DNA of 64,000 nucleotides from Marsupella aquatica (GCA_973895155.1 OZ316891.1:25109899-25173898), one strand, 5' to 3'; shown: positions 15,731 to 45,039, counted from the stretch's first letter. The notes: generated from the sequence alone by a model not told the origin. Numbers and translations are program-made.

Positions 15731-16528
15731 GGTACATCATCAGTTATCAGTGACTGATATCAGTCATTGCTCGTCGCGCTTAACACTTACCTGCATGTCG
15801 GCGACTGTGCTCAGATTGGCCCGGGGATCTCAGCGAACTCGCAAACATCTATGATTCAGGGTTTACGGTCTTGAAACGCAAAGCAATAAGCATAAAGGCG
15901 GTGTCCGTACAGTTTTAGGCGACCATAGCCAGAATGTCAAAGAGGTCGCCGACATAAGGTCGACATGATGTTTACTAGAAAAACATTTTACAACCCATAT
16001 ATTGTAATTCGTCGGCAATGCTCGCCGAGAAGACATCATCGAGATACTACTACTAGGCTGTTGGTGGTGCCAGCCTTGAAAGAAGTAATCAACGAGAATT
16101 GTGATGCAGTGTAGAATCCTTGGGATCAGTTGCGACCACCAGAAGATCAAGATGTTTGCCCAATAAGAGAGCTTATAAGAAAAGGTAGCATGAATTCATT
16201 GTCATTCCTTGGCGATGCTCGCCGAGAAGACATCGTCAAGAGACTGCTACTCCTACTTGTCAAGCCGAGGAAAATGCTCTCGGCGAGGGTCGCCGACTTT
16301 ACCACGACAGATTCAGTAATGTATAACTAAGCTGCCTAATCTGCACAAAATGTTTCATAAGATCTGGATTACACAGCCGATTAGACGGATTTCTACTATT
16401 ATCGTCCAGTTTAATTTGACACTCCATAAAATCATTACCGACGAACGATTCAGTAACTACCAAAATGTATCAAAACTTTGAGGCTACAACGTTCCTCTAT
16501 TTCCTACAAGTAAATGTGTACACGAAAT

Positions 16529-17320
16529 TCATGTTTTTTGTACATTCACTCCAGTGAACGCCCCTAATTCAGCTCTTGCCGAGAGGAGGTCATTCATTTT
16601 TACCCATAGATTCTGGACGTTGTCACACATCTCAGATAGCCTAGCCTGCACATCTACATGAAGGCTCATAAGCTTCTGGAAGTCTGACTTGCTGTCCGCG
16701 ATCTCTGCATCCAAACTCTTCAGCAACTCTTTAGCAAACACGAAGTCAACATCAGCATATTTCGAACACTCGGCACTAGGCGAGTCCTTGTGGCTGGTTG
16801 TGTTGTAACGACCGCGGAACTTAGCTGCACCGTCTACGGGCATCTTCAACGTCTCGTTCATTCTGTTTGCATCACCAACAGCCTTGCGATTATCTGGAGA
16901 TCTCAACAGACAAGGAGCTTCACCATCACCGTCTGGCAGTGTGGTAGCCATTGCAATAGGATGCTTCCTTGGGCGACCTTGTTTCCTCTTCTCTGCCAAG
17001 AGCCAAGGAGCTTCATTATCAGGTAACGCGATCGACATTATGATGGGATGCTTCCTCGGCCGACCTCGTTTCCTCTTCTCTGTCAAGAGCCGAGGAACTT
17101 CATTATCAGGTAACGCTATCAACATTACGATGGGATGCTTCCTCGGCCGACCTCGTTTCCTCTTCTGTGGGACGATGTCCAAAACGGCGGAGACAGTGGG
17201 TGTGTGCCTGTCTTGGACACCGATCATAGACTCCACTCTGGCCATGGTGCTCTGCCCTGATGAGAAAGAAGGTGAAAAATTGTAGGGTGCATCGCGCTGC
17301 CACATTGCCTTCACCTCCAT
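16529..17320 (-). CDS. Triple AT-hook protein with a C-terminal coiled coil
   Basis: Three KRK[R/Q]GRPRKHP motifs in ~81-bp repeats and a heptad-rich C-terminus. Intact 263-aa ORF; an upstream exon is possible. Confidence 0.75.
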   Translation of the reverse strand: MEVKAMWQRDAPYNFSPSFSSGQSTMARVESMIGVQDRHTPTVSAVLDIVPQKRKRGRPRKHPIVMLIALPDNEVPRLLTEKRKRGRPRKHPIIMSIALPDNEAPWLLAEKRKQGRPRKHPIAMATTLPDGDGEAPCLLRSPDNRKAVGDANRMNETLKMPVDGAAKFRGRYNTTSHKDSPSAECSKYADVDFVFAKELLKSLDAEIADSKSDFQKLMSLHVDVQARLSEMCDNVQNLWVKMNDLLSARAELGAFTGVNVQKT

Positions 17321-17861
17321 CTATCTAGTCCGTGTTGTGGTGACCTGCAACGTACAAGACAATCATCATCATTGCCACTAAAAATCCAATAATTATTGGT
17401 ATCCTATCCCTAGACGGTTGAAGGGACAACAACGTCCGCTCGTAATAATGGGTACATGTCTTTTCACACACACTCCAGGTTTGGCCAACAAATGAGTTAA
17501 TGTTGATTTGACCTGCAACGGTCAAGACTGTCAGGATTAGTTTTTGGCACTGTATGAGCGTATGATTCCACAATTACTATGTAATCCCATTTCGGCAAGG
17601 ATCTCTGAGATCAGAGGCCACCGACTTCTTTGTTAGTTTGACGACAAAGAGTTTAGGGTGTAAGTAGATCTCGGAGAGGGTCTCCAAGATCTGGTGGTTC
17701 TCTCACTCGGCAACGGTCAAAATTATGATCCTAAGTTCCATTTTGGCGAGGGTCTCTGAGATCCAGTTTCTTACTTTACCTTGGTAAGTGCGATTTTGGC
17801 AAGGATCGCAGACATCCAATTGGGAAGTTCCATTCCGACGAAGTTCCATTCCTGCGAAGTT

Positions 17862-18400
17862 CCATTCCGGCGAGGGTCACTACATCCGGTTTCAGTGCCA
17901 TTTCGGTGAGGGTCGCTGACATCCGGTTTCAGTGCCATTTTGGCGAGGGTTGTTGACATCCGGTTTTAGTGCCATTCCGGCGAGGGTCGCTGACATCCGG
18001 TTTCAGTGCCATTCCGGCGAGGGTCGCTGACATCCGGTTTCAGTGCCATTTCGGCGAGGGTCGCTGACATCCGGTTTCAGTCCCATTCCGGCGAGGGTCG
18101 CTGACATCCGGTTTCAGTGCCATTTCGGCGAGGGTCGCTGACATCCGGTTTCAGTGCCATTTTGGCGAGGGTCGCTAACATCCGGTTTCAGTGCCATTTT
18201 GGCGAGGGTCGTTGACATCCGGTTTTAGTGCCATTTTGGCGAGGGTCGCTGACATCCGGTTTCAGTGCCATTTTGGCGAGGGTCGCTGACATCTGGTTTC
18301 AGTCCCATTCCGGTGAGGGTCGCTGACATCCGGTTTTAGTGCCATTTTGGCGAGGGTCGCTGACATCCGGTTTTAGTGCCATTTCGGCGAGGGTCGCTCA
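17862..18400. repeat. 37-bp tandem array, ~14 copies
   Basis: Unit GTGCCATTTCGGCGAGGGTCGCTGACATCCGGTTTCA (e.g. starts at 17895 and 17932), with no spacers. Confidence 0.95.
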
Positions 18401-18702
18401 GATCCGACAAATGGCAAATGTCTCCAAGGTGAGTAGCGTTCACGAACACTACATCTTGGAGATCCTCGCCGAATTCCAACGGTGCCGTTTGGATGTCGGT
18501 GAGGCCGCCGGGAGGGAAAAAAGACCACACCAATAGTACGATAACGTAAGCTTTTTTATTATTGAAAAATGTCGTACAAAATTAGTCCATGATGCTACCC
18601 CTGACCTCATTACTACATGATGAGTTCAAGTCATGACATGACCTAGTGGCCAGTGGACCCTATCGACAATGCTATCCGCGATGACCTCCTGTGCCTTCAC
18701 AG

Positions 18703-19413
18703 TCAAATATCACTAGAATAAAGCCCGTAGCCACTGTCTGGATTGTTGCTCGGCAATTTTTCTACATTGTCACACCATAAGATTGGGGTTAACCTATTCT
18801 CCACCCAGTCCTGGACTCTTCCTAGCACATCTCCATCGAAGAACTTATCATACAGATCCCTCTCAATTATCTCCGTCCTCCAGACGTAGTTTGCCACCCA
18901 AGACTTGAGTGATGTAACTGACATCATAGAGAGGGCATCAATAGGCGGAATTTGTCATAAGAGAACACGGAACGTACACGCGGTTGAGTGACGATTCCAA
19001 TGTCGGTTGTCGTCCATGTTTTCAATGACGTCCTTCACCACTTTTAACGCTGCCCATCCCTTGGAGTGAGTCACGAGGAATCTCCATTTCCTACTAACTC
19101 TGGACAATATGCGCATGTTGTCGATCATCTTGAAGGTAGCATCATCATCAGTGCCATGTGCATTTGCAGACTCAAATGCATTTCTAAGTAGAGGCCAAAC
19201 ATGTCCCTCTGTCAGCATATCCGGGAGGCCAGGGATGAGACTCTGCCTTTTTGCTTCTTCTGCTTCCTCCGGAATAGGCTCCCCAATAGTCCCCCATATT
19301 GAGAGCCGATCAAAATCAGCTTTCAATTTCAGCTCAATAATTGTCACCGTAAACTTATCAAGGCGTGTAGCGCACTTTTCATGATAACGCCTCTTCGTGT
19401 ATGATCCTTCCAT
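18703..19413 (-). pseudogene. F-box-like protein A (one frameshift near 18955)
   Basis: LIPGLPDMLTEGHVWPLL...LSRVSRKWRFLVTHSKGW. The paralog at 55228-55957 reads through this junction in a single frame. Confidence 0.7.
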
Positions 19414-19740
19414 GTTGGAGAGCCGCTTGAAGCAAGTTTAGCCGCTTGAAGCACCCGTGAGATGAAGATGACACCCAACAGATTGAACACAACAACCAAC
19501 CAACCGAACAAGCGGATGAAGAATAGAGAAAGTGCCCTCCTCTTTATAACGACATCGACATTGACATATTGGTTTCGATGGTCTCCACCTGCGAAGTCTG
19601 CGGGTTGATCTTGACCCTGTAGGGGCTGCGCGCCGGTTGCGCAACGGGCGTAGAACGTCTGTCTTCGTGGGGAGGCTCTCCCTAAGAAATGAACAGCGAT
19701 GTCATTTCTGCCCAGTGCGATGAATGTCAAAGTGTAGAAA

Positions 19741-20017
19741 TTCAACCAAGCGCAGGGATAAGTGAGAAGGACGTTGAAAACCCTAACAAAGAGTGAAGAG
19801 GAAGAGGAAGAGTAAGGAAGAAGGGAGCACGTACCGCACGTACCGCACCGCACAAAACTACGTCATGGATATGGGACATCCCAACTATACTTGACAACGT
19901 ACATCTTGTTAACAGACCAAACAAGAAAGTACGCAAGGGAAGTACGCAAGGGTCTAGGATTTACGGCCCAGTATAGGGGGTACGTGTTTAGGGTTTAGGG
20001 TTTAGGGTAAACCCTAA
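19741..20017 (-). promoter_or_regulatory. Upstream module with telo-boxes and GTAC repeats, duplicated at 37311-37655
   Basis: Inverted homology to 37311-37655. (TTTAGGG)3 at ~19987-20007 and repeated GTACCGCAC. Confidence 0.55.
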
Positions 20018-20201
20018 ACGGTCCAAATGTCAAAGACCCTCGCCAAGAATTGATAGTGAAAGATAGGAAGGATCTCATGTCGCCAAGTATTTATTACTCA
20101 AAAAAGTCGTACAAAATTAGTCCATGATCTCTAAATCTGAACCAGGTGTGGCGTACTCCTGCGTATTCTATACACTAAACCGATAATGACATGAAGTGCA
20201 C

Positions 20202-20930
20202 CTAAAAGTTGTCACGATTGACACTTACACCTTGATCAAGTCTTTCCTGAACCTGCTCAGTGTACCAATTATCAAGACGAGTCCTTTTCCAAGCATCTAC
20301 TCGTTCTTGCTGAACACCATATATCGACAGATAACAGTCCGCTTCCTCCGAATCACATAATAACCAGGAATCGATCCTCTCATTTAAGATATCATCAGCC
20401 AACCGAGCCCAAACATCAATCGGTGGAAACGCTCTCATTGACTCACAAAAGAAGTGAGGTGTCAATTCAAGCCATCTTGTGGCACAAAATATCACAGCAG
20501 TAGTCATTGCAGCCCATGCTATGGAGTTTGTTATCAAATATCTCCATTTCCTGTTGATATGTGCAACAGACCGCACCATCAGGCACATCTTCCTCACTGG
20601 AGCATCCACAAGCACAACATCTTCCAACATTGATTGGATCCGGGGCCATATGTGCAACTCCACAAGATCATCAGGCAATCCCGGAATCAAGTTACCGGCT
20701 GGAGGGCGACATCGTAGGGGATAACGAGAGGAGGGGAGATTCCAGATGCGAGCACGGTCTTGTTCTTTACTAGCAAGAAGCGTCTGCAATTCCGATGTAA
20801 GCCTTTCTTGTGTCCTATCAATCACCATCTCACGTCCGCCTGCACTAGGATCCATAGTTTCGAACAAAGCAACAACCCTCATCCCAAGGACCCAAGCGGG
20901 TTTAGGGTCGAATCTGAGCCTCGCCAACAT
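20202..20930 (-). CDS. F-box-like protein B
   Basis: LIPGLPDDLVELHIWPRI...VAHINRKWRYLITNSIAW in an intact ORF. A paralog lies at 60584-61249. Confidence 0.7.
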   Translation of the reverse strand: MLARLRFDPKPAWVLGMRVVALFETMDPSAGGREMVIDRTQERLTSELQTLLASKEQDRARIWNLPSSRYPLRCRPPAGNLIPGLPDDLVELHIWPRIQSMLEDVVLVDAPVRKMCLMVRSVAHINRKWRYLITNSIAWAAMTTAVIFCATRWLELTPHFFCESMRAFPPIDVWARLADDILNERIDSWLLCDSEEADCYLSIYGVQQERVDAWKRTRLDNWYTEQVQERLDQGVSVNRDNF

Positions 20931-21213: not shown

Positions 21214-24200
21214 TCAGACGATACTGGCATTTGCTACAAGGCCGCGGACCTCAGTTAGAGTCAAGATAGGTTGGTTTACACATTGATCCGTGTCAATGTC
21301 CCTTTTACAGATGTTTGCAAAGCACCAGTACAAGTACTTGCACGGGAAGTAGGCTCTTCCCATCGACTCCCTATACATGAAATCCTTGCAGGAGCAACTT
21401 GGGAAGACACAGATCTGGACGCAATGTACTGAAGTTCGCCCCCTGCTAGTGTTGTTCACCATGAGCCTTATGCCGGTAGCATTCCCTGTTTCAATTCTCC
21501 TCATTGACGTGCACACAATGGCCTCGATCTTAGCATTTTGGATACGTGCTAATGCATCCTTGGGGGGGTCTGACCTCCTTCGCCTTGCCTGGCCATTGCG
21601 GCGAGTACCACGATCGTCAGGCCTTGTAGGATCTGGCCGCTCTGGGTATGTGTTCAAATCCATGATGATGTCGCCAGCACTCACTACCTCATTCATAACA
21701 TCACCACCAGAAATGACATCCACTCCATTGTTGTGCAGGAAAATAACCTCTGCTTCTGTAAGATTAGTACCACGAGAGACCGGAAACTTTGAAGGCAGTG
21801 GTGGTAGCACGCCGGTAATGAAAGGCAAAGAGGATTTTGTGCAACACTGGTTGTTCGGACAAAACCAATACGGATATGGAACACCTGGTTCATTAAATTT
21901 ACTCCCCGCCAGCCAACAAATACCAACAACACCCAATTCGCTCACTTTCAATCCTGCCTCTCTAATAAATTGAGCACATACTCCCCGTTCCTTGCCTTTG
22001 AACGCACCTCTACAACCGGGACTCTTACCACATGTTGAGATGCGGGCCAGAAATAACGTCCCTGGCACCAAATCAGTTTCCTGAACATGTCTTCTGACGG
22101 GCTCCGGACGTGGGGTTGACCTTGTCGTCCGTTGGAGAGGTTCCACAATGACAACTTCAGGCTCGCCCGAGCCACTACCGCCATCAGAAGACAGATCCAC
22201 AACTTCAGGATCTGTGCTTTTTAAGGTTGCGTCCCTGTTTGCAACCCCCTTGAACTTCCTCTTCTTTGGTCTCGTTACCAGAACAATGTCAGGCCTGTGT
22301 GAATCTTCTACTACCACATGAGCGCCAGATACGGCCTTCCCGCGCTTCATAGAAACCGTTTCTACATCTCCGCTAAGTGGGTCCGCCGACGAGAACTTAC
22401 GCAATTCTGGTTGAGTTATAACTGTGTTCAATTTTGAAAAGAAAGATTCCACATTCCCAACAGCAGTAGCGTCTCGAAGTCGGAGTTCAAATAGGCTCGG
22501 TCCCCGCCCTTTCCTCCCACTGTGTTGGTAGTGCTCCAAAGATGCAACCTGGCTCAATGCTCGAGTTGCATCTAAGTTACAGGACTGTACTAACCCAACC
22601 TTTCTATTAGAGGACCATTTCCGCATGACCGCATGCACCGACTCTGCCCCGCTGTGGTTAGGCATCAGCGTAGCCTTTTCTCTGTCCATCTCCTACAATT
22701 TCCAAGAAGAATGTCAATACAATTGGAAACATATCTCGGCGACCGCTGCCAATATTTGACAGAAAGCGTTACAGACAGAGGTCATCCAATTGAACATCCC
22801 TTCAACTGACCCCATGTCAGCGAGCTTCGCCGAGATTTGACGGATTTCATGCATATAGAGGAAAAGCGTTAGACACTTACGAGTCTCAAAAAATTTCCCC
22901 ATTGAGAAAACCGAACAATCCACCAAGACATCCACGTTGTGAGCTCCTTCGCTTTTCCAGGTAGCGCGTTGCCCTCGCTCCACCACGTCTTAAGCTTCTC
23001 AAAAACTCGAAATGCAAGAACTATGTTGCCGGCGTGTCGAAGCGAATCTAGAATTTCCTTATGCTCAAATCTCTTCTGTGGGACAATGTGCTTCTGCACC
23101 CTCTCCACTGATTGGGCCCAGTGAAACGCATCAAACCTCTCTCTATGGGTATTTACCTTTCCATCCCAAAATTCATTGCGGATTGCATTCCACCCAGCAG
23201 CAGCATTATCAGCCATAAAGCCACAAAATTCAACATTGATAAGCCCATGTTCTCCACACACCCTCCTCATGACCTTCCATGCAGTTTGTAATGCCGCACT
23301 ATCTTCTGAAACCAGCTCACAAACAAATATTGTGCACAGGCCCCGATAGAAATGGTCATACACGTGTGCTGACATGGTGCACCATTTGTTGTCAAGTATA
23401 CGATGCATCACATCAGACATCACCCATGAATGCTCGAGATCCCCGCCTGGCTGCATTCTTCGAACAAGGTCCACCCCGGAACCAGGACCTTCTGTACTCA
23501 TTTTAAAAATGTGCGGTCGCTCGTCTGTTCCCACGTTCTGGGATGGGAACAAAACACTTTGGATAAACGGAAAGGCAGTCACCTTCCGCATCTCCAGTAT
23601 CATGTTAAGATCAGACGACACATGACTGTACTTCTTGATGCTCCTGATCATAGAGCAAAAAATGGATTCATCACCGAGGATGGACAACATTTCATTAAGG
23701 TCTCTTGCCTCCTCAGATGTCACCATTTTAGCCACTGGGTCTTCAAGGATATCTTTAAGTTTCTGTATTGCCTTGCCCTTGATAACAGACGGCATAGCAG
23801 TCGGACTCCTCTTCAGCTCCACCTCCACAAGATTGCGCACAACTGATCGTTGATCCTTGTTATGCGTGAACATTGCAGGATGGGTGTGATTTCCTATATG
23901 CATCGCAACACGAGACTTGTGACAATAATTCACGTCATCCTTGGTTGGAGTGATATAGTACATCTCACTTGGGCATCGAGCTATACACCTGGGAGGCCTC
24001 TTGCAGTACGTACAAATTACACTCGACGGGGTAACATCGCGTCCAACAGGGAAAGGTAGCTCATTTGTGCCTGCTCGATCTCGGGTCCACTTTGCAGAAT
24101 TGTGCTCTTGTCGCTGTTGAAAATTTTCACAATCCTCATGCAGACATCGCAGAGAACCCAAACACTTGACGCTTTGGATCTTGTACGAGTGACTATTGTT

Positions 24201-25064
24201 GTTCAGCTTTGGGCCAATGTTTGCTCCCGTCTCAATTAACCGGCTCCACATGTAACAATCGTTCTTGCGCTCCATCCCAAAGAAGAAACAACCCTTAGAG
24301 TATGGACCAGTAAAGGGTGGCAACTCAAAAATATGGTCTCCATCATAGAATTCTGGCAATCGCAGAACTCTCTCGGGCAATTTCATGCTCAAAATCTTAC
24401 GAGCAGCTTGTACACAACGAGAGGTCCCTTTTCCGTGCAACATGGCATGAACAACACTGACAAGGAACTCATCCTTCCATACCGAATCACCATCTTGGAG
24501 ACCCTCGCAGAGGATGGATGCCTTTGAACGAGGTGTCTCCTTTGGTTGACGATAACAAGCTCCACGATCCTCCCAGAATTGGGATGTGTTTGACTGAGGT
24601 GTATTCATTGGTGAAGGTTCACCATCTCGGAGACCCCCTCTGACATGAATCCCACTGGATCGAGGTGTCTCCTTTGGTGGAGTATCACCATCTCCACGAT
24701 CCTCCCACATTCGAAATGAATTCGACCGAGGGGTACTCGTCCGAGAAGGTTCTTCATGTCGGAGACCCTCTTTGACATGGTGTGCACTTGGTATGCACCC
24801 TATCTTTCTGCAAAGAATATAAGACGCGCCATACTTCAGGTACCACTCTCGCTCATCTCCATCTCCTTTGGATTCAGCAGACATGGACAACCCGTCCTTG
24901 CTCTCCTCATAAATCATGAAATCCCCTACCTTCAAACCAAAACGGCTCGCTACTTCATGTTCCTTAGTCACTCGGACAATGTCAACGTTAGAATTACGAA
25001 AAACAACTACATCCCCCGTTAAAGATGTGATAATCACAAGAGAGGCCATGTTTCCCGAATCCAC
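21214..25064 (-). CDS. MULE-type transposase, two exons (25064-22881, 22692-21214), ~1220 aa: GCM-like Zn domain, DDE core, zf-PARP-like finger, SWIM
   Basis: Phase-0 GTAAGT...TTGTAG intron joins the 731-aa and 491-aa ORFs. Catalytic motifs WVMSDVMH, FMADNA, DAFHW (C/DxxH) and NHSGAESVHA. GCM-like CLGSLRC..C...CTYC...GNHTHP. SWIM PSCSCKDF...PCKYLYW (His changed to Tyr in this copy). Confidence 0.85.
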
Positions 25065-25363: not shown

Positions 25364-26195
25364 CTACATCAACTTTTTATCCATACTACTCGGCGAGGGT
25401 CTCTGAGATCTATTTGGGACTCCTGGGGCCCACACTCTTGTGCAAGCTCGAGTTTCACAGTAGGAAATTTGTTGACTTTTCAACATTGACTGTTCAACAT
25501 TGACTCTTCGAGTCGGAGCATCATCGACTTTTTATCCCTACTCCTACTCGGCGAGGGTCTCTGAGATCTATTCGGGACTCCTGGGGCCCACACTCCTGTG
25601 CAAGCTTGAGTTTCACAATAGGAAATTTGTTGACTTTTCAACATTGACTGTTCAACATTGACTCTCCGAGTCGGAGCATCATCGACTTTTTATCCCTACT
25701 CCTACTCGGCGAGGGTCTCTGAGATCTATTCGGGACACTTGGGGCCCACACTCCTGTGCAAGCGAGAGTTTCTCAGTAAGAGATTTGTTGTTTTTGCAAC
25801 ATTGACTGTTCAACATCGACTCTCCAAGTCGGAGCATCATCGACTTTTTATCCCTACTCCTACTCGGCGAGGGTCTCTGAGATCTATTCGGGACACCTGG
25901 GGCCCACACTCCTGTGCAAGCGAGAGTTTCTTAGTAAGAGATTTGTTGTTTTTGCAACATTGACTGTTCAACATCGACTCTCCGAGTCGGAGCATCATCG
26001 ACTTTTTATCCCTACTCCTACTCGGCGAGGGTCTCTGAGATATATTCGGGACTCCTGGGGCCCATACTCCTGTGCAAGCAAGAGTTTCTCAGTAGGAGAT
26101 TTGTTGTTTTTGCAACATTGACTGTTCAACATCGACTCTCCGAGTCGGAGCATCATCGACTTTTGATTCCGTCTCTTACTCGGCGAGGGTCTCTA
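25364..26195. repeat. 158-bp tandem array, ~5.3 copies
   Basis: CGGCGAGGGTCTCT at 25391, 25549, 25707, 25865, 26023 and 26181 (exact 158-bp period). Confidence 0.95.
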
Positions 26196-29100: not shown

Positions 29101-29711
29101 CCATTTTCGCATCTTGGATTCGATAGTACTGAAGAGAGTGCCTGAGTTTCAATTGTCCTAAGAGATATCTCAATTCTCTAAGACGTCCGATTGTCAAGTA
29201 CAATGTCAAGACTGAGCTGCCAAGATGCAGGTTCATGCATGAACACTCTGTATTTACCTTACCTCGAATATGAGATCCTGGCATTAACGAATGACGACAA
29301 TGTGTTTGCGTGTCCTTTCTGCCCTGTCCCAGCTCAGAATGACTACTCGTAAAGAGCTGCAAAGGCAAAATTGTTTTCGTGTTCTTCAGATTGGCATGCA
29401 ACAGTTTTCTCAACAATAATTTAACTATGGGGTGCAACCACAATGAAGTGCACGAGGGCGGAGGGAATCACAGAAATTCACCGGGGGCAGCTGCATTGAC
29501 TTCTTGATCCATCGCATGCCTTGCTTGCTTCTGATGATCAAGGGTTGTTTTTTGCGTAGGCCAAGGGCCGCATTTTTGAGGACGCACACATGCGAGTTGG
29601 CCCTTATTGTATTGAGTAGTATTTGACAGGTTCCCTGTTGAAATTAGATCTGATCTTGGTTTTTGTTGTCGTTCTTTTCCTTCTCTCTATACTAATGCTT
29701 TTGTTTGCCAG

Positions 29712-29824
29712 GACGTCACAGTGATGGGGTCGTTTGATAATTGGATGCGAGGTGAATCCTTGTCTCCAGAGAGTACAGGAACATTCACAAATTTCTCCGC
29801 TACACTCAAATTGCGGCCAGGCAG
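29712..29824 (+). pseudogene. PTST1: Captured exon of a CBM48 protein, PROTEIN TARGETING TO STARCH 1-like
   Basis: DVTVMGSFDNWMRGESLSPESTGTFTNFSATLKLRPG, flanked by CAG and GT splice sites. Confidence 0.75.
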
Positions 29825-30326
29825 GTGGGTGGCTTTTCTTTCAGTCAACCATGAAGTAGGTCGTGTGTTTTTTCTCTTGAAGTTGGCAATTTTATGCTTC
29901 TCGATTCGTTCAACAGTGCGATGAGAAGTGAGGTTACTCCAGTATCTATGTGCACTACGGACCCTCCTGTCCGAATAGTTCACTATTGAATTGGTCCTGG
30001 ATAGATTCGACTATTCAGTTCCCAATTCCAAAGATTCCATCCACTGCCGGTAGATTTTATCCATCCGGCAGATTGTAGAGTCGCTAGCAGAAATAGTCGT
30101 ACTGTACTAACTAGGAAGCATGTGAAGAAGTAGTGTTCACAACCTCGTACTCTCGAATTACAACGTTGGAGGTGAATTGTAACTCTCCGTCCATCTGTAC
30201 TATGTTTTTAGATCGTAGCAGTTGACCCGAGTGTTTGTCCTTAACGCAGTTACCAGACAGATGCTCTTGTGTTGGTCTGATTCGGAGTTGAGAATGCAGC
30301 AGGTCGAAACTGGTGCAAATTTATGG

Positions 30327-35300: not shown

Positions 35301-35753
35301 GGTGATGAACCTGCTACTGTGACAGTCCTAATAGAGGAACCTACTGAGCCTAGCTTCACTACTGTGAAGAGAGGAAGCATGCGCACACGAAGCAAGTCTG
35401 CTGGTGGGAGCAAAGCCACGTCAAAGGTTTCATACAAACCTCCAAGAACAGTGCTGGCAGAAAGATCTAAAGTGGAAGTGGGGAAAGCACCTAATGCTGA
35501 GGGACAAAGTGGCTTGTTAGCTATTGATGAGAGTGGAACACGAGTAGGATTTGGCAGAGTGCAGGTTGGTTCCACAACGTTCCATGGCAAGAGGATTCCC
35601 CCAAGTTATTCAGTAGTGTTAGTCACATTACTAGTGAAACCTAAAGTTGTCCTTCCCATTCCAAACACAAATGATGATCCTCCTCAAAAGACACTTGGAG
35701 ATGCTGCAGGTTCTTTGGTATTATGGCCAAGCAAGTTCATAGAGGATCCATAA
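32374..35753 (+). CDS. CACTA TnpA/ORF2-like multi-exon gene
   Basis: Several GT-AG exons. Ptta/Transposase_24-like segment (VWARLVAYF...KKSSQMTEARLSVQNPNLTGRTG) and Tnp1/Transposase_23-like C-terminus (FHGKRIP...V.LPIP...TLGDAAGSLVLWP). Exon borders not all resolved. Confidence 0.7.
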
Positions 35754-37310
35754 CAATGTCATGCCATTATTTGTTTGTAGTGTGAGTCATGTCATGTAGA
35801 TTTTAGATGTCAAGAAGCAGTACAAGAATCATGTCCTCTTGGAGATTCATAGTATCATGCATGTGCTTTCAGTTATCTCATCCTGCAGTCATCAATTATG
35901 AGTTCCTGTTTTGTCTGAATTACATTGATCACATTGTAAACTATTCCATTGGAATTTAAATGATCTTCATTTTTTAGCAAGATTGTGATTGTGTTTAATT
36001 CTTATGAATGTTTTATGTAGGATCTGCTTATATGATGCTTTGTTTCATGTGGATGTCATTCATGCTATGTTCATTTCTTGTATTCAATGTGTTATATTTC
36101 TAAAGTTAGAACATCAGTTTCTATGTATTGTAATGTGGAGTGCTCTCTCTCCTTATGAACTGTCCCTCTCTGTTCATTAGTCATGGTTATAACTTGCATG
36201 TGAACCTTATTAGTTATAAACATGAGTATATAGAGTCCCAAATGGTTTTGTTGTGTGACGCGGGCCAGGGTCTCCATTGGTCTCTCCTGTGACACTAAAT
36301 GGTCACACGCTAGTCGTTGTTGAATGCGGGTAAGTCATGTATGTGACTTACTATGTGACTCGCTGAAGTCATATTGCAGTCACGTAGAAACAAGGCTAGA
36401 CTCCACAATAAAGTCACAGATCAGTCACAAATGGGTATCAAGCAAGTTGCAAAGCCCAGTATCAATAGTGACTTCCATTTTTTGGTCTCAACTTTTGCAA
36501 CTCCAAGGGTCACAGCGTGGGTCAAGTCACGTTGAGTCACAATGAAGTCACATGAGCCAAAATGAGTCACATATTGCGGTCTCAGTTCACCTCGGATTCT
36601 TCTAGTGGACTAATGCCTCTCAATTCCATCTCGGAGAGGGTCTCCGAGAGACACGATGCCTGATCTGCCTTACCTTTCCTCCCGTGATATGGTCCAAGAG
36701 TTTAGAGGCATTGCCATTTCATGCACACTACTCCTTCTCGAAGAGGGTCTTCGAGAGTACAAGGTGTCTGAAGTTCTTCATCTCCCTAGATAAAGTGAAG
36801 ACATTTGGGGCACACCTTTCTATGTTGGTGAGGGTCTCTGACATGGAGCAGGGGTATTTTGGATTTAGATTGTCAACTTCCTTGTCCACAATCCTCTTTT
36901 GCGAGTGTCTCAAAACAGGATGACTGCCAGATGTGGCACACCACGCCATCTCGGAGAGGGTCTCCGAGATCTATCGGTGCTGTCTCATTGCAGCTTTGTA
37001 TACCCCACCCAAGGGTATATAGGTTTAGGGTTTAGAGGTCTTTGTCAATCCCGCTATCCATTCTCGGTGAGGGTCTTTGAGATTTGGACTCGTATTGTGG
37101 GCCCCCATTCCCTCTTTGGGACGAGGCTCCAAGATGTTGACACGTCTCAGTATTGGCCCGCTATCCATTCTCGGCAAGGGTCTTTGAGATTTGGACTCGT
37201 ATTGTGGGCCCCCATTCCCTCTTTGGGACGAGGCTCTGAGATGTTGACACGTCTCAGTATGGGCCGCAATTAATTGTTGGCGAGGGTCTTTGAGATTTGG
37301 ACCCTAAATC

Positions 37311-37655
37311 TCATACCCCCGTACTGGGCCGTAAACCCTAGAACCTTACGTACTTTCTTGTTTGGCCGCGTACTTTCTTGTTTGGCCCGTTAATTAACAA
37401 GATGTACGTTCTCTAGTATAGTTCGGATCTCCCGTATCCATGTACTTGTGTGCGGTGCGGTACCGGGGATCTCTCGTATCCATGGAGTACTTCCATGCGG
37501 TGCGGTACGTGCGGTACGAGGGTCCTTCCTTACTCTTCCTCGTCACCGGTGCGGTACGTGCGGTACGAGGGTCCTTCTTCCTTACTCTTCCTTGTCACTC
37601 TTGCTCTTCACGCTTTGTTAGGGCTTTCAACGTCGTTCTCACTTATCCCTGCGCT
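37311..37655 (+). promoter_or_regulatory. Upstream module of the ParB-like gene (paralog of 19741-19985)
   Basis: Shares GTACTTTCTTGTTTGG, TAACAAGATGTACGTT, GTGCGGTACG repeats and TTCTCACTTATCCCTGCGCTT with the reverse complement of 19741-19985. Confidence 0.55.
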
Positions 37656-38207
37656 TCCTCACTCTTCATCATTCACTCCCCATCTCATTCACTCCCTGTT
37701 ATTCCTCACGCATCCTCGCTCTTCCTAGGTCCCCTCCGCTCTTTGTCCCAGTCTTCCAATCACGTTGGCTTTCCTCTCTTCCACTTATTCTTGGCAAGTG
37801 TGGCCGTGTGCCCTGGTTTGCGAAGGTGTTTTGAAGGCTTCACCTTGGCGGCGGTCGAGTCTCGTAGTTTCAAGCTCTGTGCTGGTTGGCAAAGGTGATT
37901 TGAAGGTCTTAGTTTGGTTTGAGCTCGGCAGTGGTCGACTCTCAAAGTTTCAAGCTTTGTGCTGCAAAGGGTGATTTGAAGGTCTCAGTCGGCGGTGGTC
38001 GAATCACTCTCAGTGGGTTGTAGTTTCAAGCGCGGCGCTTCACCCATCTCCGAGGTTGGAAATTTTGTTCACTGCATGACTGTCTACACGATTTGAATGT
38101 ATGTTGCAAGCTTGACATGTCAAAACTTTTGCTCGGCGGGGCTCGCCAAGATGTATGGTTATTGTGAAGTAATTCTTGAATGTTTTCTCATGTAATCTTA
38201 GATCACA

Positions 38208-41200
38208 ATGGTGAAGAGGAAAGACTCGGCTGGTTCTGTCGCTGGACCTGTTGATAGCGGAACTTTTCAGCGGAGTAAGAAACAATGGTCTTTGTCCCCT
38301 TCGCCAGTGACATCTCGACTAACACGCTCACAAGGTGGTCCCCTTGTGGAGTCAGTGGACTCAAGGAGGAAGTTTGAGCCAAAGCAAATATCGTTCGAGC
38401 CAATAGGAGCAGCGGAATTAGCAGATATTGCAGAGAAGGGAGCTTGGGAGTTGATCGTCTCCAAGTATGAGATGAAGTTTGAAAAAGATCCTCCCCGGAT
38501 CCCCTTATGCCGGCTCATGCCAATGGAGGCCGTCAGGAATCTTCATGATGAGTCAGTGGTCAAACTAAAAAAAGGATTCAGAGAGAGCGGCTATGTTGTA
38601 AAGCTCAGCGAGTTCCACATCACTGAGTTCAATGAAGCAGGGGAGACGAGGACAGTGGCAGAGTTCAAGCCCTATTGGGACTCGCTGTGGACTGAAATCA
38701 ATGAGCAGTTTGAGCAAGAGTGCGATGCGTCAGAGGACTTCAAAATGCTCAAGGACAAGATGGTTTTGGGTTTTTGACGGAAACCATAGGTACACAGCTT
38801 GGTCTGCAGTTGCGGAGGAGTTTCCAGATCAACCGCAGTACCATCCGTGTGTCAGATTCTCTCTTTTGAACGCTGGAAAGGACGGATTCAAGAAGGTTGA
38901 GCAAGCAATGCATGCTCTGAACTTGTAAGTAACTCACATTTTGCAACAACAGGTATACAATATTGTTTCCCTTGTGTGAATACCCTATTGGCAATCTGTC
39001 AAAGATTGCCTTGTTTGAATGTTAGACCTAAGAACATTCTTTGCCGTGTCCAGGATAAGCGTGACTGTCATGAGGACGTCATGGTTCAATGACGCCGATC
39101 GGGTGGCGAAGCTGTTGAACAATCCATTGGAGGAGTACAGTTTGCTTATGTCCAAGGAGACGCTGGAGGGTTTCCTCAAGGCTCGAAATCGTGGCCACGG
39201 GAAGACTTGGTACTCCAAGAACATGACAAAAGAGGCAGCTGTGTACATCATGAGCTGGTCAAACATTGAAGCGGGGCGAATCAATATTTCAAAGGAAATG
39301 GCACAAGACGCAGGTCGTGGGCACCCGTGGAATGCCAAGAGACTTGAGCATGAGACTGAGGCAATGATTACTGCTGCGTGCAAGAGCTGGGACACTAAGT
39401 TCCCCAAGCTTGCAGCCTGCGTGAATCCAACCAATGGTTTGGAATTCATCCTGGCATGTCGACAGCTCTATCACAAGTTGGCAAAGGAGGCCAAGCAGGG
39501 TGTCATGAATGTGCAGGTTGGATTGGACAGGATCCGCTTGTTTTCTGGGCCTTGGTTAAATGCAAAGTGCAGATTAAAACTCCTTGAAGGCTCATTTTGG
39601 AACGGAGGAAGATAGGAGTAGGTATCACCATCCACGTAGCAATAGTGATTCAGCGGTTAGATCATGGCTAGCAATGTGGTCAATGTGGTGTTACATCGAC
39701 TACGTTGGTTGTATCTTGTTGACCAATTTTGCTGAGAAGGCCTACCAGCCTGGCAATTTTAGCGGAACGCAAGAGGAATTTGCTGAGCTTTATAGAAAGC
39801 TTTACCGATCTTATGTGCAAGAGAAATCCTTAAAAGTAGGCGGTGACATTTGGAATGAAGGGAATACCAAATTGGCATTTTGGGAAGCGTGGATTAAGCA
39901 AACAAAGTGGTGCGTGACAAGATTTCTCATACATCAGGAGAACATGAACATCTCATACATGTTGAAACAACTACCATTGGTGATTAGATCTTGGATGGAG
40001 GCTACAGGTAGCCTTAGCATGTATCCATGTGATGGTAGCATGCCTCATGGCAGAGTATTCTCAGAGTGGGAACGGAGGAACTGCCCATGGTACATGGAGT
40101 ATGACAATTGGAACACTTTTCTCGAGGTTGCCGAGAAGGATAGTGCAGACCTGCTCAAAGAAGCACAGGAACCTAGTAATTACTATGATATAACAAAGTT
40201 GCGACAACTGTCAGATTCAGTAACGGAGGCAACAGAGGTGGAGACCCTTATCCCAACTGACCCTGCCTATGACGGGAAGAAGGCCAGAAAAGAAGGTGAA
40301 CGGAAGGTTGACAAGGAACCATTGAGCGACATCAGTCAGTCTGACTCGCTAACCAGTCCAAGAAAAACATCAGGTATTACTCGATTCCTTTTGCATTGCA
40401 TAGTGGTTTCATTTGGAACTACATCTTGGCTGGGTTTGCTAACATAGTACTGAACCAATTTCGGGGTCGTTGAGATAGACTGCATCTCATCTTGGCGAGG
40501 CTCGCTGAGAACAAACAAGTTTTAGTTGCATCTTGTCCAAACCCTTGGATCTCATCTCGGCAAGGCTTGCTGAGATGAACAGCCAAATGTCGTCTGGACC
40601 TTTGCAGATGAAGTATAATGTCAAGTGTCTGGATGTCATGTCGGCGAGGCTCGCGGAGAAGCTTAGGATCAATAACCCCATTGCTTTGCAATCTATCCAG
40701 GTATGAAGGAGATACCGGAGGAACCAGGTTTTGTAAAAAGCAAGGCTGTAGAAGTGGCTTCAAAGCCAATTATAGAGAAGGCTCCACAGCCAACAATAGA
40801 GTCGGCTACAGAACCAACTGCAGAACCAACAATAGAGCCGGCTACACTACAACAAGGCAACCAGCAAGTGGAGCAACAAAGCGTGCAGCCTTTGACAGAG
40901 CCAATGGTAGACCAGCCTCTGGACCAACAAAGCGAGAAGCAACAAGAGCATGACGCATCCCAGGGAGAGAACGCAACCCAAGGAGGGGATCATTCAGATG
41001 ACGTACGGGTAGATAACGAAGGAGAAGATGAACGGGTAGAGGACGAAGGAGAAGACAAACGGGTAGAGGACAAAGGAGAAGACGAACAAGAGGGGCGTGA
41101 GTCTAATACTCTGGCGCCAAAACGGATGCCATTATCCTCAAGGCCGAAGACAAAGGCTGCAAAAAAGACCAAAACAACGAGGCCCAAACCTCGCCGCGCA

Positions 41201-42453
41201 AAAGCACGTGACACTGAGCTTGAAGACATTCCGCCCAGCCCCATAGAGCAACCCCCGCCTAGCACCATACCACAACCCCCGCCCAGCCCAATAGAGGTTC
41301 CGCCCACGACAATCCAACATGAGGCCCCAACGGATGGCCCAAATTACGAAGAGGACGTTGAAGGAGAACCTGAGTCGGATGGCACAGAGGTGGTTGGAGT
41401 TCGGTGTTCAAGCGCCGATAACTTTTCTTCCCCGCTCAGGCATTGTTATTTTAAATGGTCTCCGTATCTTTTCAAAACTTACTTTGACGCTGCCAATGAC
41501 AGTAAAGAACCGGCTGTGGTACTCCGTTTTAGAGACTGGTGCAGAAAGCTTAGGCGGGGTGGTTTGGCTGCAGAAGGCTGGCTAAAGAACGGGAAGCCTA
41601 CAAGGTCTGGTGCAAATCTGATTCTGATTCAAATGGGATCAGACACCCGCATGCATGTGGATGGGAACATCCCATTGTGGAATTTGTTCCGGCCAGACGA
41701 CCTCAGTCGGGTTGAGGATTTTGTGTGAGTTTTCCTCGATGATGAGGGATTGTTTGGCATAGTGCACAGTGCTTCGGTTGCCCACTCCGCAGTACTTTGT
41801 GACAGTCTCAATTACGAAGAGACCAATTGGGTGCTGAAAGACACCTTTTTCATCTGGAACGCCACACCCACCTTTGACTTCACGACTCGAAAGCGGGTAA
41901 GTCTTATAGATTTAACTCCATTCTTGTCTTATGTTCTTTCGGTGACTTGTACTCAGAAAGACTCATCACTGACTTTGTTCAGTACCTCCAGAGTGAATAT
42001 CTCAAGCTGGACCTTTGGGGATTTAAATCGTCTGCCGAGGTATGCCCAAAGGATGACGTGAAGCCAATCAGTGTCGAGCTTGATATGAAGTTGAGGAACG
42101 GGCTAACTAACTATACAACGGGTCAAAATGAGACCATTGATGATTTTGGTGGCACCTTGTCTCCAGCTACACTCCAATGTATAATAGAATATACAACTAA
42201 GCTAGGGGGAACTGTTGTCACGTTCAATGCACACTTCGGGGCTATCTTTAAGGCTGGTGAGAATTGTGGGCGGATGGTCTTTGGGATCGAATCCTATCCG
42301 TACTTCAAATCTTATGTGGAACACACGATGACAGAGTTCGTTGGAGTGCCTCTAACGGAGCAAGAGGAGGCAGTGGATCGTCGAAAATCCAATCCAAAAA
42401 AGCGCAAGAAGAAAAAGCCTTCATGTGAGTTTACTACCGTTTCCCTTCAATGA
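38208..42453 (+). pseudogene. Multi-exon gene: ParB/Srx-like domain, helical region, acidic/Pro-rich linker, beta-class N4/N6 DNA-MTase-like domain
   Basis: RIPLCRLMPMEAVR...VVKLKKGFRESGY...FWVFDGNHRYTAW (ParB signature, +1 frameshift at ~38763). In-phase introns at 38925-39053 and 40374-40700, and another from ~41897. C-terminal SPATLQCIIEYTTKLGGTVVTFNAHFGAIFKAGENCGRMVFGIE resembles MTase motifs X-I-II. Further frameshift at ~39600 and stop at 41726-41728. Confidence 0.65.
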
Positions 42454-42965
42454 TTTTAATATTGTCCCATAGTATTTCAGCGGACTCGCCGAGATGGCTC
42501 TCCATCTGGGCAAATCCATCTCGGCTTACCTCTCCGAGATGCATGTCGGCCGGCCTAGCCGAGAGGATCGCATCTGGCCCGGGCACTTTGAGATTTACTG
42601 GAAAGTCCCTCTCAGCTGGCCTCTCCGAGATGCATGTCGGCGGGCCTCGCCGAGAGGAACTGCATCTGGCCCGGGCATATTCAGATTTCCAGGCAAGTCC
42701 ATCTCAACAGGCCTCTCTGAGATGCATGTCGGCGGGCCTCGCCCAGATGAATCCCGAGTGGCCTGGCCACGTCAACTTCTATTGGCAAGTCCACGTAGGG
42801 CCTTAGATGCGTCTGGAGGGACAAAAATACATCTTGGCTAGCCTCTCTAAGATCTATCTCGAAAGGCGACTCAATGGATTATCTGGGGTGTCCACATGGG
42901 CTCACTTGCCTCAAATTTGTTCTTGTGATCCGTCTATTTTGGCGCAATACATGATTCGATTTAAG

Positions 42966-44122
42966 TATAACTTAGTAGCAGTTCCCGACAGGACCACTGA
43001 GTCGGCAACCGAGGAATGGGACACACAGGACAGACGACTTGTGAAGCTTGCTTGGGAGGAAGCTTTGGCATTATTCTCTCCGGAGAAGTCAAGCCTACCG
43101 TGCTATGCTGATACGTATCATGAAGAAAGAGTTGCTCATTTTGTGAAAGAGAGAACAAGGAAGACTCTCAAATTTGTCAATGATAGGGCAGAAGAGGCTG
43201 AATCGGATGAGAGTAGCTTGGTAGGAAGTGATAGTGATAGTCTCCAAACTCACCATGCAAGCATAAGTTTGTCAAGCTCCAATTCCGAAGAGTAATTTTT
43301 GGGTGAATTTACCTTCATTGCAGCTCAGAAGCAAACTGAGCCACAACAACCAGTTGACGAGGTAGTGACTGCCCAGCAAGGAGTCAATCAGGGGGTGCCT
43401 GTGCACCAACGACTGAATCAGGGGGTGCCTGCACAACGACATCAACCCGCCATACTTGCGACCATAGTCAAAGAAGCATTGGACTCCAACAGGGACCAAG
43501 ATGAAGTCCTAGTCAGCCTCAGCGACTTAAAATTGAAGAGAAAAGATTTCAAATGCTTGAGGGCAAAAAAATGGCTCACTTGTGACATCATCAATGCTTA
43601 CATTCCTCTATTGGAGCATAGAGCAGAGGTCATTGCAAAACCCAAATGCATGCTTTTGCCCACACATTTTTACAATGTCTTGACGCATCCTGCGTACACC
43701 TTCAACGCAGTGTTGGCATTTGTGAAGGGCATTGACGTCTTTTCATTCGACCTCATTCTAATCCCCATCCACAGGCCAAAACATTGGGTACTAGCTGTGG
43801 TCAATTTTACTTTGCAGCAACTACATTTGCTCGATCCCATTGGAGGCGAAGCATCGGAATGCGACAATTTGGTGAATGTCGTCGGTTTCTCCATGACCTG
43901 TCCCGCTTGCGCAGTTGTCCCCACTTATCGCCATTACAATGGCAACGCATCATCCGCGACGATATTCCAGCCCAACCCGATAGTTACAATTGTGGAGTAT
44001 ATGTCATAATGTACATGGAGCGTCTTTCTAGCGGCTCTGTATTGGCGGTTGACCCTAAACATGTACTGCTTATACGACAAACGATTATTGTAGACCTAAT
44101 CTGCCAGACGATCAGTTTGTAG
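42966..44122 (+). pseudogene. Ulp1/SENP-family C48 peptidase region, possibly the last exon of the ParB-MTase gene
   Basis: WLTCDIINAY...THFY...LILIPIHRPKHWVLAVV...LLDPIG and, after a frameshift at ~43880, PAQPDSYNCGVYV (H-D-Q-C intact). 42807-43295 is in the same frame, separated by one stop. Confidence 0.85.
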
Positions 44123-45039
44123 ATAGAGGATCGATGGATTGCCTTTGTGAATTCAATTTGTGAATATTTCACAACAGAGCAACATGTTGTATACGAAGTA
44201 AAATAAAAATTTCCTCCAAAGGTTATGTTCTGGTCCTGTACTTTCTACGCTCGACCCCGTGTTGTTTTTCAATGTCATGCCGAGCTCTCCTGGATAAGTC
44301 GGCGAGGGTCTTTGAGATAAGTCTTTGAAAGGGACGTGTTGTATGGACTCTGTTGTACGATGTGTTGTATGGATCCTTTTTGAGATTTAGTAGCGACACC
44401 CCATGATATATCAAAGACCCTGTGTGAGAAGTTTTTTTTCCCTCAAATTTCAGTTGAATCTTGGCGGGGCTCGCTGAGATTCAACTGAACTTCAAGGAAA
44501 TCTCAGAGAGGCCGCCAAGATTGAAACTTTATATTCTCCTTCAATGTCAGAGAGGCAGCCGACATAAGAAATGGTCGAAGTAAAGTACCCGATCCAACCT
44601 CAAAGAGGCGCCGACAATGGCGCGGACTGCGATTGGGTTGTGGATTGGGTTGTGCCCCAGAAGAATTCATCTCAGCTGATTTGTTGAGTTCCGGTGTTGG
44701 ACTGATATCAGTCACTGATGAAACTCACTGATAATTGATGAAGTACACGACCCCTTGTCGTCGTCTTGACAACAAGTACCATAAATTGGCATACTTATGT
44801 TGTCAGATTTGGAAATAGGACCCTTGGGTCAACCTTTCACGATGAGTGTTGTGACCTTCACATTGAGGCGCATTTTGTAAGGACATATTTAATTAAACAA
44901 GTCCTACCCATGTGCAGCGAATATAATACGGCCCGAGTCCTAATCGTCAAACTGTCGTGCAAGGTTGGTATTGTGGATATCTTCGGTTAAACCTGGTGAT
45001 TGAAGGTACTTTTATTGGTGGTTTTGGTAGCTCTACTTA

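Follow-up and report, generated by a model that had tools for sequence, protein, structure and literature searches.

Does the DNA between the two ends of this large repeat form a single transposon whose accessory genes travel with it, and if so, could those genes shield the element from silencing by its host? In the 64-kb window (the whole stretch of 64,000 nucleotides that was analysed), the unit at about 15724-44754 is a Mutator-family DNA transposon (a MULE) with accessory genes aboard, present as a decayed copy and measuring 19,022 bp (19.0 kb) without a nested CACTA element.

15724..15769, plus strand: left end, with 8 outer nucleotides and a short imperfect TIR that has an internal 16-bp palindrome
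26599..36607 (about), plus strand: nested CACTA element with a 3-bp duplication and a Transposase_24 match (E 1.6e-4); outside the MULE proper and free of the dispersed palindrome
44709..44754, minus strand: right end, with an imperfect TIR and 8 outer nucleotides

The original prediction of a TIR-bounded unit of about 19 kb holds for the TIR pair, the length and the linkage of the arms, but a clean insertion with TIRs and a target site duplication (TSD) was not recovered, and each end is placed about 8 nt outward of the predicted one. The TIR-like pair (15732-15769 and 44709-44746) is 38 nt long and 79% identical, and its core was found four times in the 64-kb window, where 0.35 occurrences would be expected: once at each end, and two further times at the start of a second copy (copy 2). 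The left boundary at 15724 is marked by varied flanks in three of four runs (X1, X2, X3) and by an empty-site continuation behind it, and the right boundary is probably 44754, with one type of loose end before 44755 in two of the four (X1, X2). No TSD of the 8-11 bp expected for Mutator and MULE elements was found around the main copy, and its left and right ends have dissimilar empty-site sequences and sit in different host sequences. The main copy is thus not one simple insertion, and for the same reason it cannot reveal the TSD of its family.

The unit might instead have been patched together by chance from separate elements, or from genes captured neutrally, without any coordinated function. 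Consistent with such a mosaic are the missing TSD and the differing host sequences, the absence of the AT-hook-like gene from copy 2, and the finding that no single contig covers the transposase through the ParB gene. However, contigs join the two MULE arms across the CACTA site in all four runs and in two organisms, the palindrome and upstream sequence are common to both arms, and dN/dS is below 1; we regard a mosaic as highly improbable. The same contigs skip the CACTA insert, confirming that it is nested in the MULE, and link the ParB/Ulp1 arm to the transposase arm, both as predicted. The predicted divergent layout is likewise borne out in the window, with the transposase, F-box-like and AT-hook-like genes running leftward and the ParB/methyltransferase-fold/Ulp1 gene rightward. 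Among the private changes of the main copy, many replace C by T or G by A in CG/CHG contexts, from which it follows that this copy was methylated, and three of its right-arm lesions are absent from other contigs. No element of this kind was found in the literature searched.

The leftward genes begin with the transposase.

22869..25052, minus strand: transposase exon 1, with a GCM-like zinc DNA-binding domain and an RNase H-like core holding two catalytic Asp and DxxH
21214..22692, minus strand: transposase exon 2, with the catalytic Glu and a C-terminal SWIM finger

The exon 1 AF2 model reaches pLDDT 86, and the best Foldseek matches of the transposase model are ISCth4 (E 7e-5) and the GCM-DNA structure 1odh (E 0.009). 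Together with the DDE residues (D353, D421, H450 and the exon-2 Glu), which are conserved in an alignment with relatives, the ISCth4 match upholds the identification as a MULE transposase. A VIA structure comparison to ISCth4-type DDE ranked third (Z 7.0, 172 aligned, rmsd 7.8), and a Riccia relative was placed by the Atlas among MULE clusters (0.76-0.81, a lead only). IS256/Mutator transposases (ISCth4, PDB 6xg8; WRKY-GCM1 and SWIM; PMC1702500) are reported to share this architecture, an RNase H-like DDE core with DxxH, a GCM-like domain at the N-terminus and a SWIM finger at the C-terminus, but the protein here is too diverged for Pfam MULE, which gave no match to it or to the relatives scanned, and falls in a clade of 72 retrieved relatives at 28-69% identity. 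None was present in the viral contigs searched. SWIM exceeded its cut-off in one of 16 relatives scanned and was sub-threshold in one more; the His of the finger is Tyr in the main copy and is kept in copy 2.

Beyond the transposase, the left arm and its partial second copy comprise the following.

16529..17347, minus strand: AT-hook-like gene, in which an 87-bp tandem repeat supplies three (K/Q)GRPRK repeats, with a predicted coiled coil
18703..19416, minus strand: F-box-like gene 1, with one internal stop in the main copy and a sub-threshold Pfam F-box match (E 0.07-0.09)
19748..20056, minus strand: upstream region of F-box-like gene 1, 80-91% homologous to that of the right-arm gene
20202..20858, minus strand: F-box-like gene 2, a paralogue of F-box-like gene 1
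54378..63605, minus strand: copy 2, diverged and partial, with the left end, F-box 1, F-box 2, transposase exon 2 and 33 palindromes

Two F-box-like genes and an AT-hook gene had been predicted, and the genes are present, but their assignments fall below Pfam cut-offs: the AT-hook-like match is sub-threshold, and F-box matches (E 0.05-0.09) were obtained in two of five paralogues scanned, a roughly 25-aa insert splitting the motif, with no Pfam F-box match for gene 2. Between the copies, dN/dS is 0.40 (0.28-0.59) for F-box-like gene 1 and 0.49 (0.33-0.77) for gene 2, which is not neutral and supports purifying selection on this cargo. The expectation that copy 2 keeps the gene order holds for F-box 1, F-box 2 and transposase exon 2, but the AT-hook gene is missing, which leaves the claim that this gene is inherited cargo unsupported. 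Other elements interrupt copy 2 and cut it off at 63605, so it is silent on the right arm.

A more distant family (44747-53829) had been cited as proof that cargo is inherited with the element. Its transposase is homologous, but its F-box-like gene faces the transposase, and no TIR, palindrome or comparable dispersed 10-mer was found in it within the window; it does not serve as such proof. A cargo search of 80 metagenome loci of distant transposases, the best 80 of 353, gave no matches: neither these nor the distant family had the palindrome or a detectable ParB/MTase/Ulp1 gene, although such blanks are weak, since these loci are remote and decayed and most do not reach the length of an element. 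Zisupton elements carry SWIM and Ulp1. In Zisupton/KDZ transposons an F-box domain is likewise tied to a DNA transposon (PMC12062965), but the transposase superfamily is another and the domains lie in one polyprotein, in contrast to the separate genes of this MULE.

The right arm is occupied by one gene and its upstream region.

37054..37656, plus strand: upstream region, with palindromes and a telobox
38208..38926, plus strand: exon 1, a probable ParB/Srx-fold domain with an IPLCRL box, an insert of about 50 aa and DGNHR; frameshift near 38772
39054..40373, plus strand: exon 2, a conserved region without assigned function; frameshift at 39582 in the main copy only
40702..42424, plus strand: exons 3-4, a low-complexity linker followed by a beta-class N6/N4 methyltransferase fold; stop at 41726 in the main copy only
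43324..44122, plus strand: Ulp1/C48 protease retaining His, Asp, Gln and Cys; frameshift at 43880, confined to the main copy

The predicted Ulp1 is well founded: Pfam C48 matches both halves (E 6e-11 and 4e-7), and the His-Asp-Cys triad and oxyanion Gln are intact. An intron reading of the split was dropped for a frameshift because other contigs have an extra base, and the Ulp1 exon is probably spliced in frame to the methyltransferase exon. Relatives of the gene include 20 gene models in Riccia and two in Calypogeia. Ulp1 motifs were found in none of the 55 retrieved, and the single complete Riccia relative that was examined does not extend beyond the methyltransferase; the Ulp1 fusion is thus either not ancestral to the family or separately annotated in these relatives.

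Profile comparison gives the C-terminal part of the protein a beta-class N6/N4 methyltransferase fold whose motifs are atypical (hhalign probability 96.5%, E 1e-9, 210 columns, motif IV before I). Pfam PF01555 (N6_N4_Mtase) matched three of five Riccia relatives scanned at E 9e-6 to 5e-5, just under the curated cut-off. With a methyltransferase HMM built in the analysis, the window model did not rise above 1000 shuffles, and the matches above shuffles, for this fold and for ParB alike, came from family profiles. The window copy has QMGS in the DPPY slot and TFNAHFG in motif I, with the Asp lost in both; Riccia relatives have D[LM]P[STI]G and DFAGGWG. The canonical (D/N/S)PP(Y/F) and FxGxG motifs do not occur, and there is no DPPY in the window or in five relatives with the slot located. 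The methyltransferase-like designation therefore stands for the fold, but these atypical catalytic motifs do not support an active enzyme.

An enzyme active with a non-canonical motif could place 4mC, 6mA or another self-mark on the palindromes or the element, blocking or mimicking host 5mC. The residues kept in Riccia relatives, D-[LM]-P-[STI]-G at the catalytic position and DFAGGWG as motif I, speak for such an activity, as does the existence of retrotransposons that carry C5 methyltransferases (PMC5890265). However, the aromatic residue of the catalytic motif, which stacks on the flipped base, is missing in six of six sequences, and the window copy, having lost Asp in both motifs, has diverged further. 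Even with functional 4mC enzymes reported in a liverwort (bioRxiv 2021.02.12.428880), we consider methylation by this protein very unlikely. Marchantia MpDN4MT1, bdelloid N4CMT and DNMT-carrying retrotransposons are likewise prokaryote-type methyltransferase folds in eukaryotes, a liverwort included, but those are active enzymes.

The N-terminus is probably ParB-like, with moderate support. The DGNHR piece of exon 1 matches a PHROG ParB-like profile (E 0.005); with the 50-aa insert removed beforehand, the ParB profile match scored 25.8 (probability 22%), while 60 column shuffles gave no more than 18.0; the boxes stand in the right order (box I, then the (D)GxxR box II); and DGNHR is exact in 12 of the 14 relatives showing the motif. 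On the other side, Pfam ParB matched neither the gene nor the relatives scanned, the window model alone was not above 1000 shuffles with a ParB HMM built in the analysis, and the single-sequence fold of this exon reached pLDDT 36. No HTH or other DNA-binding domain, and no dimerisation domain, was identified in the protein. Word-seeded homologue searches with the ParB and methyltransferase exons found no relatives, and PDB sequence searches and phage tblastn gave nothing significant. An exhaustive phmmer search with exon 2 returned 46 matches, four of which were unrelated bacterial repeat proteins and were set aside. Some relatives are labelled 'trimethylguanosine synthase' in UniRef, a name not taken up here because Pfam and PHROGs give DNA methylase families. 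One Riccia family member lies on the same contig as a Riccia transposase, 25 locus tags apart, and was not accepted as proof of linkage.

The nearest named look-alikes are found in phages. In the Atlas, a Riccia relative adjoins phage ParB_N + N6_N4_Mtase clusters (0.82-0.83, leads only), and 10 of the 24 phage ParB seeds collected are ParB-methyltransferase fusions. Phage ParB-N6/N4-methyltransferase fusions are described with an equal domain order and a beta-class fold (PMC12704722; PMC4738411), but the MULE gene is eukaryotic, intron-containing and transposon-borne, encodes about 1,200 aa or more, and has a conserved middle region and no DPPY. The main text of the ParB survey uses neither 'plant' nor 'liverwort' (PMC12704722).

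Both arms are further tied together by a dispersed sequence.

16009..44480, no strand assigned: palindrome ATCTCGGCGA-GGG-TCGCCGAGAT, 23 bp, 64 copies (43 in the left arm, 21 in the right)
17858..18406, plus strand: 37-bp tandem array of about 15 copies, one palindrome each
25367..26199, plus strand: 158-bp tandem array, lying upstream of the transposase and holding one palindrome in each unit

Non-coding DNA holds 61 of the 64 sites (6.9/kb, against 0.3/kb in coding sequence), and none occur in the flanks, the CACTA, the distant family or any of 31 representative related loci. When a matrix was trained with right-arm sites only, it recovered the 43 left-arm sites and none elsewhere tested. 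The sites lie in introns and promoters of cargo genes, mostly internally and also near both MULE ends, and they have been amplified in different tandem units in the main copy and in copy 2. VANC targets are likewise amplified by different tandem repeats (PMC5735166), and by analogy the distribution here is the pattern of a VANC target. This family-specific palindrome, unlisted in the original prediction, would make the VANC analogy stronger than first stated.

The main rival is that the palindrome is a site for the GCM-like domain of the transposase, serving synapsis and self-regulation; selection on the cargo would then reflect other roles, for instance in keeping the transposase stable or in opposing host defences elsewhere than on DNA. 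The transposase does have such a domain, palindromes also stand near both ends, and the MULE transposase AtMu1 is reported to bind and hypomethylate its own family alone (bioRxiv 2026.08.24.746577). However, AtMu1 binding was at the TIRs, whereas most sites here are internal, in cargo introns and promoters; the TIRs hold a palindrome other than the dispersed 23-bp one; and the distant family has a homologous transposase without a comparable dispersed 10-mer. We judge this explanation rather unlikely.

Our preferred, tentative reading, to which we give somewhat less than an even chance, is that the ParB-methyltransferase-fold-Ulp1 protein binds the palindrome and shields the element's own copies from silencing. 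The gene would descend from a phage-type ParB-N6/N4-methyltransferase fusion, and its product, no longer methylating DNA in the usual way, would dimerise and form a DNA-binding platform on the palindromes that lie in promoters and introns. There it may bring Ulp1 to remove SUMO from silencing factors, while the F-box-like proteins may send host silencing factors for degradation. Counting against anti-silencing are a right-arm protein without an identified DNA-binding domain beside a transposase with a GCM-like one, the methylation of the main copy itself, the absence of Ulp1 motifs in retrieved relatives and the moderate support for ParB.

In another version, the ParB-like domain would be a nucleotide-gated clamp that loads at the palindrome, as at a parS analogue, and slides with the methyltransferase fold and Ulp1 over kilobases. 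The conserved DGNHR, the order of the ParB boxes and the palindromic target are consistent with this, and ParB-fold clamps are reported to act in gene regulation as well (PMC12704722). However, enzyme-fused ParB folds are described as often binding ATP or activating rather than clamping (PMC12704722; PMC13229309), the protein has no identified HTH or dimerisation domain, and with sixty sites spread over 19 kb there would be no need for long sliding; such a clamp seems decidedly unlikely. A phage ParB-methyltransferase domesticated as a parS-like addressing system, in which a nucleotide-switch protein on a private palindrome, with a SUMO protease and F-box proteins, strips silencing from its own family, is in our view unlikely.

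Shielding by the right-arm protein would amount to a VANC/KIU-like system that arose independently in plants of the liverwort type. Arabidopsis VANDAL/VANC and KAONASHI (KIU) MULEs are likewise large, with accessory genes and Ulp1 (PMC5735166; PMC13317346), the latter in KIU-type VANC proteins (PMC13317346), and they also have a short family-specific motif that is dense in non-coding DNA and multiplied by tandem repeats. VANC motifs, however, are described as 8-9 nt long and arrayed in one orientation, in contrast to the 23-bp palindrome, and a Pfam scan of the right-arm ORFs gave C48 only, with no VANC-type protein recognised. The accessory protein here differs in having a methyltransferase fold together with a probable ParB fold; the element has short TIRs; and relatives occur in liverworts rather than eudicots.

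The MULE is thus a candidate anti-silencing system in the liverwort lineage, with a prokaryote-type protein and a likely target site that can be read from the sequence. To our knowledge, flowering plants are the only group in which sequence-specific transposon anti-silencing has been studied well (VANC/KIU, TnpA, AtMu1). If the reading is right, the VANC strategy would have evolved convergently and a ParB-fold protein would act on plant chromatin; a new sequence-specific epigenome tool could also come of it. Mechanism aside, the unannotated multicopy ParB-like/methyltransferase-fold family in liverworts, MULE-borne here, is a new part. Also new are the 23-bp family-specific palindrome, the relatives and methyltransferase fold of the right-arm gene, the intact Ulp1 triad and the dN/dS of the F-box-like genes.

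The element carrying the predicted cargo, a Mutator-family unit (~15724-44754), consists of two arms flanking a nested CACTA transposon.

Features of the element and of copy 2, a second diverged partial copy (54378-63605)
21214-22692, transposase exon 2
22869-25052, transposase exon 1
26599-36607, nested CACTA, ~10 kb, with a 3-bp duplication
19778-21147, 37025, 55215, 61306-62447, telobox-type AAACCCTAA sites

The proposed TIR-bounded structure was upheld in part. An inverted pair (38 nt, 79%) is present at 15732 and 44746, and its core, with four matches against 0.35 expected, recurs beyond the element ends only at the start of copy 2. In contigs of four public runs (two organisms and two studies, one possibly the window's own source), the left end lies at 15724: the flanks before it differ in three of the four runs, and an empty-site sequence runs on behind it. 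The right end probably lies near 44754, with a loose end before 44755 in at least two of the four runs among 24 listed of ~1,280 matches. However, the window copy has no TSD and its two 9-nt flanks are unlike, nor was the left empty-site sequence found beyond the right end. The two ends represent different insertion sites, presumably brought together by recombination between copies or by an adjacent deletion. The predicted ~19 kb without CACTA proved accurate (19,022 bp), and contigs link ~26576-26593 to 36607, joining the arms, in all four runs among the matches listed. Among the matches listed for these runs, no contig reaches from the transposase as far as the right-arm gene; the sequences upstream of F-box gene 1 and of the right-arm gene are 80-91% identical, linking both arms. 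The left part of the CACTA holds captured fragments, including a glycogen/starch-binding module (AMPK1_CBM, 29616-29921, E 2.6e-4), and contig depth is about tenfold greater over its right part, among the matches listed.

Assignment of the transposase to the MULEs was confirmed structurally. Both exons are covered by relatives having one uninterrupted ORF; the 72 relatives retrieved include a Riccia sorocarpa protein. A model built from 73 sequences (pLDDT 86) found its best match in the IS256/Mutator transposase ISCth4 (E 7e-5), followed by a GCM domain on DNA (E 0.009); a VIA search with it was more ambiguous (Z 7.0, rank 3). Two Asp, a DxxH and an exon-2 Glu are conserved and kept in the window copy. 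Pfam MULE matched neither this transposase nor the relatives scanned. MULEs with GCM-like and SWIM domains are described in the available text of PMC1702500 and PMC6446971.

The left arm holds 43 copies of a 23-bp palindrome, ATCTCGGCGA-GGG-TCGCCGAGAT, the right arm 21 and copy 2 a further 33; none lies in the 15.7-kb left flank, in the CACTA, in the distant family (a related MULE at 44755-53829) or in any of 31 representative metagenome loci of distantly related transposases. With a looser pattern the counts were 45, 19 and 32, respectively, versus shuffle means of 0.2-1.8. A matrix built solely from the right arm recovered 43 left-arm sites but nothing in three control regions. The analysts' own gene models place 61 of the 64 sites in non-coding sequence, a density of 6.9 per kb versus 0.3 in coding sequence. 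Because many lie within tandem arrays (37, 158, 107 and 92 bp in the element; 26 and 235 bp in copy 2), the sites are not independent, and 37 remain after the arrays are thinned. In these respects the palindrome resembles VANC21 targets, likewise non-coding, dense and expanded through tandem repeats (PMC5735166, available text). The TIRs bear a separate palindrome, TGACTGATATCAGTCA, whose copy number varies (15749-15764, 44703-44718, 54400-54439); it is a candidate transposase site distinct from the internal one. One related locus (L003, 5115 bp) repeats its own 10-mer (six copies in four blocks), possibly another family-specific motif.

The right-arm gene (exons 1-4, 38208-42424; Ulp1, 43324-44122, probably a further exon) had been described as ParB/methyltransferase-like/Ulp1, of which the ParB part received moderate support while the methyltransferase fold and the Ulp1 domain stood. 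Exon 2 gave 46 matches in an exhaustive search, four of them spurious; the 26 examined, with their cluster members, include at least 20 R. sorocarpa gene models (seven contigs) and at least two Calypogeia fissa proteins. R1sor_027256, a complete Riccia relative (1,207 aa), aligns from exon 1 through exon 4, and thus the ORFs of exons 1-4 form one gene. The C-terminal domain of this Riccia protein matches PHROG DNA methyltransferases (E 9e-7) and, slightly below cut-off, Pfam N6_N4_Mtase (E 5e-5); a family profile including the window aligned with beta-class methyltransferases over 210 columns (probability 96.5). UniRef names three Riccia relatives (P0119, P0121, P0122) 'trimethylguanosine synthase', a label that looks wrong, as Pfam and PHROGs indicate DNA methylase families. 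Motif I is DFAGGWG or TFNAHFG (relatives / window), and the catalytic slot, which in none of these sequences carries DPPY, is D[LM]P[STI]G in five relatives and QMGS in the window. An active, non-canonical methyltransferase is quite improbable, even with 4mC enzymes present in liverwort (bioRxiv 2021.02.12.428880, available text).

The N-terminal domain contains IPLCRL and DGNHR; of the 14 relatives in which the latter motif is seen, 12 have it unaltered. The domain's match to ParB_N profiles is moderate (score 25.8, with 60 shuffles reaching no more than 18.0; probability 22%) and was obtained only after excising a ~50-residue insert; judged from its sequence, the domain probably has a ParB fold. 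In the Atlas, the Riccia protein is nearest to two unnamed streptophyte clusters (0.95 and 0.93), followed, as leads, by phage ParB_N + N6_N4_Mtase clusters (0.82-0.83); fusions of this kind are characteristic of phages (PMC12704722 and PMC4738411, available text). That the protein acts as a ParB-type sliding clamp is unlikely. Ulp1, 3' of the methyltransferase part, has its His, Asp, Gln and Cys intact and would be fused in frame to the methyltransferase exon, as splice phases permit; its motifs occur in none of 55 retrieved proteins. A 162-aa open frame between these exons (42807-43295), for which a homologue search was blank, may be an extra exon.

MULEs carrying Ulp1 and accessory genes are already known, and retrotransposons reportedly carry C5 methyltransferases (PMC5890265). 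Full-text literature, spanning few subscription papers and no supplements, yielded no account of the 23-bp palindrome or of a plant DNA transposon with a ParB/methyltransferase gene; the gene's family could appear in the supplements to the ParB survey and to Iyer 2015. Tentatively, the most likely reading is that the element carries a candidate VANC/KIU-like self-protection system made of different parts. The right-arm protein would bind the palindromes and deliver Ulp1 to them, its methyltransferase fold would serve as a non-catalytic module, and host factors would be removed by the F-box-like proteins. Such a role would resemble that of KIU proteins, which combine targeting and Ulp1 (PMC13317346, available text). 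In the main rival, which is somewhat unlikely, the transposase binds the palindrome instead: AtMu1 transposase by itself hypomethylates its own family, but its binding was at TIRs (bioRxiv 2026.08.24.746577, available text).

The two genes predicted to encode F-box proteins are paralogues and F-box-like, but score under the Pfam cut-offs; F-box domains are known in Zisupton (PMC12062965, available text). The proposed dN/dS comparison with copy 2, a single pair of decayed copies, gave 0.40 (0.28-0.59) and 0.49 (0.33-0.77) for these genes and 0.24 (0.15-0.35) for transposase exon 2. Copy 2 was thought to keep the gene order, and these genes are comparable, but the AT-hook-like gene has no counterpart there. 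That the unit is a neutral mosaic is very improbable and, with the clamp and active-methyltransferase readings, among the less likely. The window copy itself is dead: F-box gene 1 has a stop, and the right-arm gene three frameshifts and one stop. Three of its lesions are not present in other contigs among the matches listed, and its private changes include many C-to-T and G-to-A substitutions in CG/CHG contexts, which suggests past methylation. Telobox-type AAACCCTAA motifs lie upstream of cargo genes (six sites in the element, seven in copy 2), are absent from the left flank and the distant family, and may give cargo expression in dividing cells.

The distant family has the expected homologous transposase (~28-46% identity, frameshifted) and F-box-like gene (24-31%), but the latter is oriented towards its own transposase, and neither a TIR nor any dispersed motif was found within 44755-53829. 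This unit is broken by an LTR-like insertion and contains a 179-aa ORF without assigned function (45916-46455). Elsewhere, two GC-rich elements (8200-12550 and 56500-60430) have long ORFs matching only coiled coils in Pfam. The first shows long inverted similarity (8503-9128 versus 11602-12232), and 11152-11545 matches 63606-63998 at 92%.
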